A stretch of DNA of 45,891 nucleotides. Origin: an uncultured Candidatus Saccharibacteria bacterium. Lineage in GTDB: Bacteria; Patescibacteriota; Minisyncoccia; Phycocordibacterales; JABMNX01. Position 1 is the first letter of the stretch, and every line of letters begins with the position of its first letter. Location of the stretch: NCBI GenBank assembly GCA_964625905.1, contig CAZVBS010000001.1, positions 1-45,891 on the forward strand, written 5' to 3'. The position numbers and the translations under genes are program-made. Shown here piece after piece: positions 8,328-45,535 of this stretch. The notes beneath the pieces were generated by a model. It was not told the origin of the DNA. It saw only the letters and a program-made list of their open reading frames with translations, and did not search any database.

Positions 8328-8377
8328 ACCAAACGTCACTTTTTACTGGTGTACACCAGTAAAAAGTGACGTTTGGT
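8328..8377. repeat. Perfect 50-bp palindrome upstream of tig
   Basis: ACCAAACGTCACTTTTTACTGGTGT/ACACCAGTAAAAAGTGACGTTTGGT, 46 nt upstream of the tig ATG. Confidence 0.8.
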
Positions 8378-10970: not shown

Positions 10971-11028
10971 TTAAGTACAAAAACAAAAAACACTGAGTAA
11001 ACTCAGTGTTTTTTGTTTTTGTACTTAA
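10971..11028. terminator. Bidirectional terminator between ppa and nusA
   Basis: Perfect 28-bp arms TTAAGTACAAAAACAAAAAACACTGAGT / ACTCAGTGTTTTTTGTTTTTGTACTTAA. Confidence 0.75.
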
Positions 11029-14468: not shown

Positions 14469-14592
14469 TAGAACGTACGTCGCCAACACATTTCTTCGTC
14501 GCTACGTCATTAAATATAATTCACAGTATTGAAATACAGCTCATTTTATTTAATTTGTGCTCCTCGAACTATATTTGGCGACGCACGTTCTA
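14469..14592 (+). repeat. E1 nested-hairpin element
   Basis: 18-bp outer stem TAGAACGTACGTCGCCAA/TTGGCGACGCACGTTCTA (1 mismatch), inner 8-bp stem ATTAAATA/TATTTAAT, loop strands ..TTCTTCGTCGCTACGTC.. and ..GCTCCTCGAAC... Starts 5 nt after the pilB stop. Confidence 0.6.
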
Positions 14593-14698
14593 AACTACAC
14601 TGGAAATATTTTGCGAGTTTTTATACATTAGTAAGTGAGCTGTAAGAAATGTTAAGTAATGTTATAATTTTTATACAGTATATAATTGAAGCTTACTC

Positions 14699-27206: not shown

Positions 27207-27259
27207 AAGTATACCTCTCACTAACTTCCTGTAAAAGAAAGTTAGTGAGAGGTATACTT
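27207..27259. promoter_or_regulatory. Perfect 21-bp inverted repeat in the divergent sod/MBL control region
   Basis: AAGTATACCTCTCACTAACTT-(11 nt)-AAGTTAGTGAGAGGTATACTT, ending 5 nt before the ATG at 27265. Confidence 0.5.
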
Positions 27260-28122: not shown

Positions 28123-28173
28123 GTTTCCTAAAACTTTTTAATTTAGATGAGTTACGAAGTAAACAAAGAAAAA

Positions 28174-28207
28174 ATCCCGAGATGTACTTAGTGGTACATC
28201 TCGGGAT
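28174..28207. terminator. Bidirectional terminator (MBL gene / rpmB)
   Basis: ATCCCGAGATGTAC-TTAGTG-GTACATCTCGGGAT flanked by A5 and T8. Confidence 0.8.
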
Positions 28208-28250
28208 TTTTTTTGAAGTTTAGTAAAGTGAATCGCTAAATTTAGAAGTT

Positions 28251-28493
28251 TTAAATGAGGCCTGCTTTTTTTAGGGTTTTATACGCCCCATTCTTATTGA
28301 TTGTTCGAATTGCTTTTGTTGAAAGAGTTAGAATCATTTTCTTGCCAAGTTCTGGGATGAAGATTGTCTTTTTCTGTAGGTTTGCATAACGTCGTTTCTT
28401 ACCTGTTGGGTTAAATTGGGTAGCACGAGTACGGTTGCTATATCCGCCAGCAACCTTCGAGCTTTTATTCGTGATAGGACATACTTTTGCCAT
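28251..28493 (-). CDS. rpmB: 50S ribosomal protein L28
   Basis: MAKVCPITNKSSKVAGGYSNRTRATQFNP... Start set at the internal Met. Confidence 0.9.
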   Translation of the reverse strand: MAKVCPITNKSSKVAGGYSNRTRATQFNPTGKKRRYANLQKKTIFIPELGKKMILTLSTKAIRTINKNGAYKTLKKAGLI

Positions 28494-30707: not shown

Positions 30708-30715
30708 AAAATTCC

Positions 30716-30819
30716 CAGAATTAAAGCACTACTTCGTTACTGCGAAAAAATGTCACTCGTCGTATGTTCATACGCCTCGTGACATTTTTTTCTTGTGCCT
30801 CGCACTGCAGTTAATTCTG
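30716..30819 (+). repeat. E2 nested-hairpin element
   Basis: Outer stem CAGAATTAA/TTAATTCTG, inner 12-bp stem AAAAAATGTCAC/GTGACATTTTTT, apex CGTATG/CATACG, loop strands AGCACTACTTCGTTACTGCG and TCTTGTGCCTCGCACTGCAG. Starts 8 nt after the rpsG stop. Confidence 0.6.
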
Positions 30820-31033
30820 AAAATTTTTATTTTTTCTATACGTCTCGCATTACATCTGAAATCTTTTAAAAATATTCGCAATACTAAAATGTATATCTCA
30901 CGACTTTTTTGTTTCTAGTCTGGTACTCCATTTCAGAATAAGAGTTCTTGGGAAGCTTTCTTTTTGTATAAAAAAGTGATATTAAGAGTGGTAGATAGAG
31001 TGTCCTTATTTCAATATGTAAGGGAGACTGCGT

Positions 31034-31702
31034 ATGAATAGCTTTCAAAAGTTATTGGTGTCGGTAATTGTTGCCGTAATCTTGAGTTCCTGTGCCCAGC
31101 GAGGCAGTGGATCAACATCTGGAGGACCGTCTGCTCTTATTAATGATGAAGTTGTTGTTTATGAAAGTTGTATGGGTGAAATACTTAACGCACGCGATAA
31201 AGAGCTTGAAGTTCCACACACGATAGCTTTCGTCAAAGATCTTGTAGGCGAAATGTTCTCGTGTGAAAATTTTCGCGGAGCTCCAGTTAAGTTTTTCGGA
31301 AAGAAAGTGCGTATTCAAGGTCGTTCAATTCATGCTGGTTACGGATATGCTCTAGCAGATCGAAAACAAGTCATTAGTGAGCTCCTTTCAAAAGAAAATT
31401 TTAAGGGGTATTACTACGATCCGCGTGGACGATTTAAGGTATCGATCAATCGAAGGCTTGATTATGTTCGCGCATATGATCGCACCGTGCCCACGTACAT
31501 AATTGTTGCGAATGTGAAATACATTGGAAAGCGTACAATTGGCGCACTTTCTGTGATTGATTTTTCACAGGAAGGTCGGGATTACACCGCGTTTCTGTGG
31601 ATCCATGGACTTGGGCTTACTCAAGAGAAAATTGTGTCGCGTTTTGAAAAGCTGCTCCGCTTTATTGCATCACCTTCTCAATTTAAGGTGGTACTGAAAT
31701 AA
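31034..31702 (+). CDS. Hypothetical lipoprotein (222 aa) inserted between rpsG and fusA
   Basis: Lipobox VILSSC after a hydrophobic h-region, GGGAG RBS 7 nt upstream, own terminator. No family recognised. Confidence 0.6.
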   Translation: MNSFQKLLVSVIVAVILSSCAQRGSGSTSGGPSALINDEVVVYESCMGEILNARDKELEVPHTIAFVKDLVGEMFSCENFRGAPVKFFGKKVRIQGRSIHAGYGYALADRKQVISELLSKENFKGYYYDPRGRFKVSINRRLDYVRAYDRTVPTYIIVANVKYIGKRTIGALSVIDFSQEGRDYTAFLWIHGLGLTQEKIVSRFEKLLRFIASPSQFKVVLK

Positions 31703-36120: not shown

Positions 36121-36241
36121 GCATTTCTAAAATTACTTCATCTACTTCGTCGTTAGCTCATAATATTTTCTTTGCCGTACTAATGTACGCCTCTGAAAAT
36201 ATTCTTCGCACTCCTTGTATCTAAAGCAATTTTAAAAATGC
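36121..36241 (+). repeat. E3 nested-hairpin element
   Basis: Outer 14-bp stem GCATTTCTAAAATT/AATTTTAAAAATGC (1 mismatch), inner stem AATATTTTC/GAAAATATT, apex CGTAC/GTACG, strands ..ATCTACTTCGTCGTTAG.. and ..CGCACTCCTTGTA... Starts 2 nt after the rpsJ stop. Confidence 0.6.
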
Positions 36242-36248
36242 TTGAAAC

Positions 36249-36272
36249 AAAAACCGCCTTACGGCGGTTTTT
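36249..36272 (+). terminator. Rho-independent terminator
   Basis: AAAAACCGCC-TTAC-GGCGGTTTTT. Confidence 0.8.
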
Positions 36273-36475: not shown

Positions 36476-36733
36476 GTGGTTGAAAAATTATCACTTTATG
36501 AAGCTATTATTTTTTCAATGAAAAAGCACAAGCCAAATGAAGATGGAAGTTGCAAAACTGAAAGTTGCGACGGCATGGTCGTTGCCGAGGTTAATGGATT
36601 GTTTAGAGGAAATTATACCCACGGCACTCCTTTCTGTAGTAGATGTAAGAGATCATATATTTCTGCTGTTAATGTGTCTGTTATAGGCATAGAAGAATTT
36701 GAAAGATTAATGCGTACACCCATGACGATTTAA
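36476..36733 (+). CDS. Hypothetical 85-aa zinc-ribbon-like protein inserted between rpsJ and rplC
   Basis: GTG start 5 nt after AGGAGG (36465-36470). Cys pairs C-KTES-C and C-SR-C. Own terminator. Confidence 0.5.
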   Translation: MVEKLSLYEAIIFSMKKHKPNEDGSCKTESCDGMVVAEVNGLFRGNYTHGTPFCSRCKRSYISAVNVSVIGIEEFERLMRTPMTI

Positions 36734-43332: not shown

Positions 43333-43872
43333 ATGTCATTAACAAAAGAAAAACAGAATAATATTTTTGACTCTATAAAAGAGAAGTTAAACTACACAAA
43401 TGTATCGCAGTCACCTAAGATTAATAAGGTTACTGTGTCTGTTGGAGTTGGATCAATAAAAGATAAAAAGAAAATAGAAACAATTATTGATAGACTTACA
43501 AAAATAACGGGACAAAAGCCTTCTGCTCGTCCTGCAAAGAAATCTATCGCTACATTTAAGCTTAGAGAAGGAGATATAATTGGATATCAGGTAACACTGC
43601 GTGGTCCACGTATGTATGATTTTCTTGATAAGCTTATTCATGTTGCACTTCCACGAACTCGTGACTTCAGAGGTATCAAACTTTCATCAATCGACGAAAT
43701 GGGTAATATATCTATTGGCATCAAAGAACACACTATATTCCCAGAGACTTCAGGCGAAGAGTTAAGAGATGTGTTTGGAATGAGTGTTACTATTACCACT
43801 TCAGCAGTGACTCGAGAAGAGACTGAAGCTTTGCTTCGCGGCGTACAATTCCCCCTACAAAAAGCAGAGTAG
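43333..43872 (+). CDS. rplE: 50S ribosomal protein L5
   Basis: KSIATFKLREG, LPRTRDFRG, FPE. Confidence 0.96.
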   Translation: MSLTKEKQNNIFDSIKEKLNYTNVSQSPKINKVTVSVGVGSIKDKKKIETIIDRLTKITGQKPSARPAKKSIATFKLREGDIIGYQVTLRGPRMYDFLDKLIHVALPRTRDFRGIKLSSIDEMGNISIGIKEHTIFPETSGEELRDVFGMSVTITTSAVTREETEALLRGVQFPLQKAE

Positions 43873-43873
43873 T

Positions 43874-43994
43874 CAAACACTTAAAAACAATGCGCTACTT
43901 CGTTGTACATCGAAACATTTTAACGCCGTACCTTGAGTACGGCTTTTAAAATGTTTCTTGCACACCTCGTACCACATTTGTTTTTTAGTGTTTG
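43874..43994 (+). repeat. E4 nested-hairpin element
   Basis: Outer 17-bp stem CAAACACTTAAAAACAA/TTGTTTTTTAGTGTTTG (1 mismatch), inner perfect 12-bp stem GAAACATTTTAA/TTAAAATGTTTC, apex GCCGTAC/GTACGGC, strands TGCGCTACTTCGTTGTACATC and TTGCACACCTCGTACCACAT. Starts 1 nt after the rplE stop. Confidence 0.65.
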
Positions 43995-44025
43995 AATGAT
44001 ATTAAAAACAACCTTTTGGTTTTTT

Positions 44026-44034
44026 TGATATACT
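44026..44034 (+). promoter_or_regulatory. Extended -10 promoter (TGaTATACT) 7 nt before the CDPS ATG, implying a leaderless or near-leaderless mRNA
   Basis: TGATATACT at 44026-44034. ATG at 44042. No SD sequence. Confidence 0.4.
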
Positions 44035-44041
44035 TTTAAAT

Positions 44042-44755
44042 ATGAAATATTTTAACGTAACACAGGCGGAAATTGAAAAGAAACTCTTCAATATCTTTAT
44101 TGGTATTAGTCTGGGGAATAAATTGTTAACACCTGAATTAGTAAAGAAATATGTTAAATGGGCTCATAAAAATACTAAAGATAACGCAATTATCCTTATT
44201 GCAAATGACATAGATACTGTTAATTGGGAGATCTTTAATGGGTTAAGTCACGAAGAAGCTTTAAAGAAAGTTGAACAGAAAGGATACGGGATTTCAGGCA
44301 TGTTTGATAAAGCTGTTCGTACACTAGCAAAAGAAGAAAGTGACCCAAGTTATATATCAGATGTGCATATTGTATTTTGGAATGATATCAAAAATGAAGG
44401 GTACGATCATTTAAGAGAAATACTTGATGAAGAATATAAAACAAATAATAAATTTAGAGAAAAGGTGTTGTGTTTTGTAGATAAATACATCGAGTTCAGA
44501 GATGTTGATGTCTCTGAAGAAGATAAAGATAAGCTCGCTGGTTATATTATAAGCGAATTACCAACTCTCTTAGGTGGAGTTTTATGGAATAACACTTTAT
44601 ATAATCTTATTCTTTATCCAACATATGTAGATAGTGGAATGAGTCAATTCGTTTTAGATATACGAGGAGGTAAATATTTCGATTCTTCAAAACTTCTCTT
44701 GAGACAGCTCAATACTCTTGTGGAAGATTATCTGGAAAAGCCCAAGTTATCCTGA
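44042..44755 (+). CDS. Putative tRNA-dependent cyclodipeptide synthase (CDPS, XYP-type)
   Basis: 237 aa. FIGIS23LGN26 (compare AlbC LIGIS37AGN40), Y168IISE172LP (compare Y178VLAE182AP) and LY192P193 (Y202/P203) occur in the right order and spacing. Confidence 0.65.
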   Translation: MKYFNVTQAEIEKKLFNIFIGISLGNKLLTPELVKKYVKWAHKNTKDNAIILIANDIDTVNWEIFNGLSHEEALKKVEQKGYGISGMFDKAVRTLAKEESDPSYISDVHIVFWNDIKNEGYDHLREILDEEYKTNNKFREKVLCFVDKYIEFRDVDVSEEDKDKLAGYIISELPTLLGGVLWNNTLYNLILYPTYVDSGMSQFVLDIRGGKYFDSSKLLLRQLNTLVEDYLEKPKLS

Positions 44756-44790
44756 AAAATAAGTCTATATAGACTAGTAAACAACCATTT

Positions 44791-44838
44791 CAAGCCATTT
44801 TAAATGCCCCAGGTGGTTGGGGCATTTAAAATGGCTTG
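44791..44838 (+). terminator. Long hairpin terminator after the CDPS gene
   Basis: 21-bp perfect stem CAAGCCATTTTAAATGCCCCA/TGGGGCATTTAAAATGGCTTG followed by TTTTG. Confidence 0.75.
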
Positions 44839-44885
44839 TTTTGTGGCAAAAGTTGCTTAAAACCCTTTTAGAACAAGAGTTTTAT

Positions 44886-44941
44886 TTGACTTTAGGCGCT
44901 TCAACTGATAATATGTGCCAAGCGTTTCAAAGCGCTTTTTT
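44886..44941 (+). promoter_or_regulatory. Promoter of the rpsN-rpsH-rplF unit plus 5'-proximal hairpin and U-tract
   Basis: TTGACT-17-TAATAT, then AAGCG-TTTCAAAG-CGCTT plus T4 (44920-44941). Confidence 0.5.
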
Positions 44942-44960
44942 AATTAGCTATATATAATTC

Positions 44961-45146
44961 ATGGCAAAGAAATCAGTAATAGCTCGGTCACAAAAGACCC
45001 CAAAGTTTAAGTCACGTGTTGTGCGACGATGTTTTCGTTGTGGACGCGTTCGTGGCTATATGAGGGACTTTGATCTTTGTCGAATATGTTTTAGAGAACA
45101 AGCAAACGACGGAAATTTACCAGGAATCAAAAAAGCATCATGGTAA
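44961..45146 (+). CDS. rpsN: 30S ribosomal protein S14, zinc-binding type Z
   Basis: 61 aa with CFRCGR...CRICFRE. Confidence 0.96.
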
Positions 45147-45535
45147 CAGATACAATAGGAGATTTAATAATAAGACTTAAAAATGCATCCGCAGTCAAAA
45201 AGGATGTAGTTAGTGCACCTTACTCAAAATTACGATTTGCAGTTGCACAATCACTTCAGAAGATTGGATATATTAAATCAGTAAACAAGAAAGGTAAAAA
45301 AGTTCAAAAGACTATTGAGATTGAATTATCTTACGATAAAGATAACAAATCAGTTATTACTGATGTTAAGCGTGTGTCTACTCCCGGACGACGAATTTAC
45401 TATAGTTCAAAAGATATTCAGCCAGTAAAATATGGAAAAGGTTCATTAATTCTTTCAACACCAAAAGGTATTTTGACAGACAAGGAAGCTAAAAAAGAAA
45501 ACGTTGGAGGAGAGGTATTATTTAAAATTTGGTAA
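45140..45535 (+). CDS. rpsH: 30S ribosomal protein S8
   Basis: [29 protein letters not shown]. Overlaps rpsN by 7 nt. Confidence 0.96.

Follow-up and report, generated by a model that had tools for sequence, protein, structure and literature searches.

The window, by which we mean the whole 45,891-nucleotide stretch of DNA analysed here, carries a gene for a cyclodipeptide synthase (CDPS) between the ribosomal protein genes rplE (L5) and rpsN (S14). The reading that we favour, with a probability of roughly 0.72, is that this gene encodes a genuine XYP-type tRNA-dependent CDPS, that it sits as accessory cargo in a hotspot at the L5-S14 junction, and that its placement is no sign of a role in translation. 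CDPSs in CPR bacteria were already known and one has been crystallised, and the window gene adds a member to a widespread and strongly conserved clade that appears to have no characterised member. The by-products of the analysis were the L5-S14 hotspot itself, a family of structured repeats (the E elements) and a natural Asp-to-Asn variant of the synthase. The features discussed are collected in Table 1.

Table 1. Positions of the features discussed, in window numbering unless L013 is named
Feature	Position	Strand	Description
L24 gene	43019-43327		Pfam
rplE (L5), upstream neighbour	43333..43872	+	Pfam Ribosomal_L5 and Ribosomal_L5_C, E 6e-32
E4	43874..44000	+	One copy of a ~127-nt structured repeat; begins 1 nt past the rplE stop; covariance model R1, 119.6 bits
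Spacer	44001..44041	+	AU-rich small hairpin ending in a T7 run; extended -10-like box; from sequence and fold
CDPS gene	44042..44755	+	ATG start, 237 aa, XYP subfamily
Ser23 codon	44108-44110		Within the CDPS gene
Asn55 codon	44204-44206		Within the CDPS gene
Mosaic tract	44610..45025 (L013 6323-6738)	.	416 bp, 100% identical to L013; background 84-89%
Intrinsic-terminator-like site	44791..44838	+	Perfect 21-bp hairpin, then TTTTGT; 36 nt past the CDPS stop
Promoter-like site	44886..44914	+	TTGACT-17-TAATAT with upstream TG; consensus match only; placed to restart rpsN and downstream genes
Small hairpin, then T run	44920..44937	+	Just 5' of rpsN; sequence-based
rpsN (short, 61-aa S14), downstream neighbour	44961..45146	+	Pfam Ribosomal_S14, E 1e-22
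S8 gene	45140-45535		Pfam
E element	14470-14598	+	
E element	28124-28252	-	
E element	30708-30833	+	
E element	36122-36250	+	
E element, L013	5888-6016		
E element, L013	10540-10665		

Identity and active site of the synthase

The preliminary description of this DNA had claimed an ORF with the three diagnostic motifs of CDPSs, and both the ORF and the motifs were found exactly as claimed. The motifs are G21-I-S23-L-G-N26, Y168-I-I-S-E172-L-P174 and L-Y192-P193 in the translation, and they occupy invariant columns of the alignment. The protein scored 39.6 bits against the Pfam model PF16715 (curated cut-off, 27) and 54.2 bits against TIGR04539, "tRNA-dependent cyclodipeptide synthase" (curated cut-off, 45). 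A sequence search of the PDB returned 16 matches, all 16 of them CDPSs, and the best was ParcuCDPS of Parcubacteria bacterium RAAC4_OD1_1 (7QAU, E value of 6e-16; its structure is also deposited as 7QB8). An AlphaFold2 model of the 237-aa protein, built from a 47-sequence alignment, had a pLDDT of 94.5 and a pTM of 0.90. The best 50 Foldseek matches of this model in the PDB were all CDPSs, with TM-scores up to 0.81; ParcuCDPS came first (TM-score of 0.70 to 0.81), followed by YvmC, BtCDPS, Rv2275 and AlbC. The predicted structure has the Rossmann-type fold of CDPSs and class-Ic aaRSs. The identity claimed for the gene is borne out by the HMMs, the fold and the alignment of catalytic residues, none of which spoke against it. 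The 237-aa ORF is a genuine CDPS of the XYP subfamily, and cyclodipeptide synthesis is the activity that its family would predict.

The catalytic residues known from AlbC are S37, Y178, E182 and Y202, with the Ser in a G-x-S-x-G-N loop, and their counterparts in the window protein are S23, Y168, E172 and Y192. In a gap-free alignment with ParcuCDPS, S23, Y168, E172 and Y192-P193 were paired with S26, Y167, E171 and Y191-P192, of which S26 is the acyl-enzyme nucleophile (PMC7613923). The five window residues were invariant or nearly so across 117 relatives. The XYP subfamily is characterised by Tyr-Pro at AlbC positions 202-203, where the NYH subfamily has His (PMC7613923). The window protein has Tyr-Pro there (Y192-P193), and Pro was found at the AlbC-203 position in 115 of the 117 relatives. 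AlbC, YvmC and Rv2275, in contrast, belong to the NYH subfamily and have His after the Tyr; they have the same fold as the window CDPS and presumably the same ping-pong aminoacyl-tRNA mechanism based on Ser, Tyr, Glu and Tyr. By analogy with the family, a first aminoacyl-tRNA would acylate Ser23, so that an acyl-enzyme is formed in pocket P1, and a second aminoacyl-tRNA at pocket P2 would then produce a dipeptidyl-enzyme, which Tyr192 and Glu172 would help to cyclise to a 2,5-diketopiperazine.

At residue 55, the window protein has Asn (in I-A-N-D) where the clade has Asp (I-A-D), the latter being present in 115 of 117 relatives. Asn55 was confined to the window protein, with its near-identical haplotype P0121, and to the closest full-length relative, P0002. 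The aligned counterpart in ParcuCDPS is D58, which lies after strand beta-3 and hydrogen-bonds the catalytic Ser, and a D58N mutant had <1% activity (PMC7613923). The Ser/Asp dyad is thus incomplete in the window protein; by comparison with ParcuCDPS, Asn55 could mean reduced activity, and full activity is not assured. This raises the alternative that the gene is a catalytically crippled or decaying passenger, in which D55N disabled the dyad and which is heading for loss, as in the related genome L013, where the gene has been cut to residues 87-237. We consider this unlikely, since the ORF is uninterrupted and retains the four canonical catalytic residues together with the pocket residues, and since most solved CDPSs do not rely on a Ser-supporting Asp (PMC7613923). 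Moreover, Asn55 is common to the window protein and P0002, and the two genes have saturated synonymous divergence (pS of 0.88) yet a pN of only 0.11, which argues that Asn55 proteins have long been kept by selection. By these values the CDPS gene is under purifying selection. For enzymologists, the natural replacement of the Ser-activating Asp by Asn provides a ready test of the proposed Ser/Asp dyad.

A bolder proposal is that the Asn55 variant has lost efficient cyclodipeptide turnover and keeps aminoacyl-tRNA binding or acyl-enzyme formation, in which case its role in this lineage would be that of a sensor or sink of aminoacyl-tRNA, or of an aminoacyl-transferase, with expression alongside that of the ribosomal proteins. 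More broadly, the stand-alone CPR/DPANN clade with its invariant pocket would make one specific diketopiperazine central to an episymbiotic lifestyle. We regard this proposal as improbable.

ParcuCDPS is the best match of the window protein in both sequence and structure, and the two share the XYP subfamily, the ISLGNK loop, the Y/E/Y-P residues and a CPR origin; with an identity of only ~22-26% in the structural alignment, however, ParcuCDPS is a distant relative. It makes cyclo(His-Pro) and cyclo(His-Glu) (PMC5816076). Its P1 residues that bind His, namely Y55, E174 and Y189, are replaced by L52, T175 and I190 in the window protein, and ParcuCDPS itself shifted to Leu or Phe when these three residues were replaced by hydrophobic ones (PMC7613923). 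On the basis of these P1 residues, the window CDPS probably takes a hydrophobic amino acid, and not His, as its first substrate, although our confidence in this is low, and with D58 also replaced by Asn55 a different product is to be expected. The P1 and P2 positions of AlbC (PMC5816076) could be mapped only roughly, with P1 corresponding approximately to F19, G21, L52, A54, W113, T175, L176 and I190, a hydrophobic set. Prediction of the product from these positions was abandoned owing to the roughness of the mapping, and no product is claimed.

The L5-S14 junction and the placement of the gene

The gene had been described as lying between rplE and rpsN in the spc cluster, and this placement was confirmed by Pfam matches of the flanking genes to L24, L5, S14 and S8. 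To place the junction in a wider context, 80 metagenome loci with relatives of rplE (L036-L115; 56-71% identity) were collected and all junctions from rpsC to rpsH were measured. The gap from rplE to rpsN had a median of 308 nt, exceeding 300 nt in 22 of 44 loci and 600 nt in 17 of 44. In 18 further loci there were at least 700 nt after rplE without an rpsN, and in 10 of these at least 2.5 kb. At the seven other junctions between rpsC and rpsH, the median ran from -7 to 42 nt and no gap was longer than 179 nt. The L5-S14 junction is thus the only permissive break point in an S10-spc cluster that is otherwise tight in these Patescibacteria. The rplE-rpsN interval was occupied by 0.6 to 2.4 kb of unrelated accessory genes, or broken outright, in ~35 of 62 informative loci. 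The ORFs in the gaps were mostly unrelated to one another (66 of 84 were singletons), and among them were a recurrent PaaX/Cas2-like regulator, ORF6N, a SocA/Panacea antitoxin, Fic, a PolB-like exonuclease, SPFH and PspC.

Because about half of the related genomes carry unrelated accessory genes at this junction, we interpret the CDPS as one more cargo gene. In having diverse lineage-specific cargo at one junction, including toxin-antitoxin and mobile-element-type genes, L5-S14 resembles the accessory-gene islands found at fixed chromosomal hotspots; it differs from them in lying inside the ribosomal S10-spc cluster, and neither an integrase nor a tRNA attachment site was observed. In the spc operon, rpsN (S14) has been reported to undergo horizontal replacement. 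For genome biologists, the occurrence of this hotspot across many Patescibacteria is the more useful result, and guilt-by-association inference should not be used at the L5-S14 junction. Two other junctions in the window were also interrupted, S7-EF-G by a 222-aa ORF with a lipoprotein-like signal (31034-31702) and S10-L3 by an 85-aa Cys-rich ORF (36476-36733). Neither guest ORF had a Pfam match, and both sit downstream of an E element.

The placement of the CDPS was then compared across 35 CDPS loci retrieved by homology. Conserved synteny was not found: the order L5-CDPS-S14 recurred only in L013, and the other 34 loci differed. Similarly, none of the 80 related rplE loci had a CDPS at the rplE-rpsN junction. 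In a Kaiserbacteria relative (72% identity) the CDPS follows polA, in P0002 (84% identity) it lies between an MGMT-like gene and UDG, and in P0008 (78% identity) it follows a malic-enzyme gene.

The ribosomal proteins of L013, a MAG, share 86-98% identity with their counterparts in the window. At 5888-6468 of L013, the CDPS is an intact 151-aa ORF starting from Met87 and corresponding to residues 87-237, with residues 1-86, and with them the catalytic loop, lost. This loss shows that the gene is dispensable in L013. The remnant had a dN/dS of 0.16. A different copy of the E element abuts it, and the outer stem of this copy reaches with its 3' arm into sequence homologous to CDPS codons ~83-85, an arrangement that suggests that the 5' part of the gene was lost by an E-element-associated deletion. 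Between the window and L013, dS was 0.685 for the CDPS remnant and 0.687 for rplE, and since the two values are equal, the insertion of the CDPS is taken to predate the split of the two lineages. The CDPS would accordingly be an accessory gene that entered the L5-S14 junction before the window and L013 lineages separated.

The preliminary description had further pointed to the absence of adjoining tailoring or exporter genes. The absence is real, in that the neighbours in the window are ribosomal protein genes and no oxidase, P450, methyltransferase or exporter adjoins the CDPS in the window or L013; it is no oddity, however. All-against-all clustering of the ORFs within 4 kb on either side of 33 CDPS loci revealed no recurrent partner family, and therefore the stand-alone state is the rule for the Patescibacteria CDPS clade. 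The genes of AlbC, YvmC and Rv2275 lie in clusters that also encode cyclodipeptide oxidases, P450s or methyltransferases (PMC5816076), whereas the window CDPS has no such partner gene. The window gene matches the other members of the Patescibacteria/DPANN XYP-CDPS clade (P0002-P0120, several of them annotated as "tRNA-dependent cyclodipeptide synthase") in length, in catalytic and pocket residues and in standing alone. It differs from them in the rplE-rpsN placement, which is found only in the window (with L119, a near-identical haplotype) and L013, and in N55, which is found only in the window and P0002.

At the 90% identity level, the window protein had more than 100 clusters of relatives with 59-84% identity to it, and the named members of this set were Patescibacteria, Kaiserbacteria or Paceibacteria. 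Library-wide, 252 clusters at the 50% identity level matched with an E value of 1e-3 or less, and the entire clade of the window protein is one of these. Members of the same clade with 33-45% identity were observed in DPANN MAGs of Woesearchaeota, Pacearchaeota and Nanoarchaeota (31-43% for L015-L021, L023, L025, L026, L031, L033 and L035), and judging by these sequences the CDPS may have been shared between CPR bacteria and DPANN archaea. P0008 was 78% identical to the window protein, compared with 51-81% for the ribosomal proteins on L042, which is only suggestive of the CDPS being more conserved than ribosomal proteins, as the pairing of the two on the same contig is presumed. A tblastn search of 50,697 phage records gave no match to the CDPS. 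A foreign origin was also considered on the basis of composition and rejected. The gene had been called visibly more AT-rich than its neighbours, and its GC content is indeed lower (31.5%, against 36.8 ± 3.5% across 45 window genes), but only marginally so (z = -1.5). At third codon positions the gene has 25.2% GC (GC3), the same as the mean for the window (25.1%), so the AT-richness reflects amino acid composition and not foreign DNA.

The preliminary description had raised the possibility that the physical coupling of the CDPS to ribosomal protein genes has a functional meaning. Under this reading, the CDPS would provide growth-rate-linked signalling or be an aminoacyl-tRNA-sensing or non-canonical factor. 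Consistent with such coupling, the gene shares its strand with the spc genes, the interval between rplE and the CDPS is without a strong canonical terminator, the arrangement has been kept since the window and L013 lineages split, and the clade, which is highly conserved, stands alone throughout in reduced genomes. However, the one other genome with this placement has truncated the gene, the relatives of 72-84% identity and the rest of the 34 other loci carry it elsewhere, and the junction itself receives unrelated cargo in about half of the related genomes. In addition, a terminator and a promoter-like site suited to restarting transcription lie 3' of the CDPS. Coupling is thus unsupported, and we give it little chance of being correct. 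No literature tying CDPSs to ribosomal operons, or on CDPS biology in CPR, was found apart from the ParcuCDPS papers.

E elements and the mosaic tract

The E4 element noted upstream of the CDPS proved to be real and to be one of five copies in the window. Its fold had a z-score of -7.6. The E elements have an outer stem and an inner hairpin, both variable, together with conserved CUACUUCGU...CCUCGUA motifs. The window copies follow pilB, rpmB/L28, rpsG/S7, rpsJ/S10 and rplE/L5, and the L013 copies follow rplE and a 424-aa ORF in the secY position; all seven are in sense orientation and start a few nucleotides from a stop codon. In the seven-copy alignment, 92% of cells were paired, compared with 39-48% when the partners were slid, and 22 of 30 pairs had compensatory changes. 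At the gathering score, Rfam contained no family matching the E element or the hairpins, and only a tRNA matched in the whole window; the Rfam matches within 43800-45000 were sub-threshold, miRNA-like hairpin noise. The E elements are a lineage-restricted family: just two weak matches (L071 and L066) turned up in 98 other loci.

Like REP, Correia or MITE-like repeats, the E elements are short, multi-copy and hairpin-forming and are located at the 3' ends of genes. They differ from these repeats in that all seven copies are in sense and directly after a stop codon. A MITE has conserved terminal repeats, and in the E elements the situation is reversed, with stems that vary through compensatory changes and internal loops that are conserved. 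They may serve at 3' ends, in termination or in processing, or they may be mobile repeats of an unusual kind.

We also considered that a chimeric metagenome assembly had joined the CDPS to the ribosomal cluster. The window is indeed mosaic at 44610-44667, resembling L119 to the left and L013 to the right. L119, a contig of 1133 bp from a different assembly, matches the window at 100% identity up to ~44667 and then diverges, and it breaks at the mosaic point. The divergence includes a 1-nt indel that alters the C terminus of the CDPS (EKPKLS versus KKPKVIPENKSI), and the last six codons of the CDPS lie in this mosaic, possibly chimeric, tract. The tract arose either through recombination between strains that occur together or through chimeric assembly. 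The rplE-E4-CDPS arrangement, by contrast, is no accident of assembly because L119 reproduces it at 100% identity, and L013 has both the junction of the CDPS with rpsN and the rplE side, with a dS matching that of the flanks. An artefactual origin of the placement is therefore very improbable.

Putative expression signals around the gene

Downstream of the rplE stop codon, the order of elements is the E element, the AU-rich hairpin with its T7 run, the -10-like box and the ATG of the CDPS. The extended -10 box that had been proposed as a promoter of the gene's own, TGATATACT, is present at 44026-44034, 7 nt before the ATG, but the claim of a private promoter is unproven. Promoter-like matches in the region occurred at chance frequency (8 found, compared with 7.5 expected from shuffled sequence), and a private CDPS promoter was therefore rejected as a finding. 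There was no Shine-Dalgarno motif in the spacer upstream of the ATG; this is uninformative because only 9 of 46 window genes have such a motif.

The hairpin terminator claimed for the CDPS was found as a perfect 21-bp stem followed by TTTTGT. Terminator-like sites were enriched in the region (6 found, 0.8 expected), and in the L119 haplotype the stem at this site is kept with a different sequence. The terminator-like hairpin is followed in turn by TTGACT-17-TAATAT with its TG, the small hairpin and rpsN. From these signals, the CDPS gene probably forms a transcription unit by itself. The layout is that expected if the spc cluster splits into two units at this point, which would explain why insertions are tolerated there. 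Very long perfect hairpins (21-28 bp) were also observed in other intergenic regions of the window, for example at 2547-2596, 8328-8377, 10971-11028 and 27207-27259.
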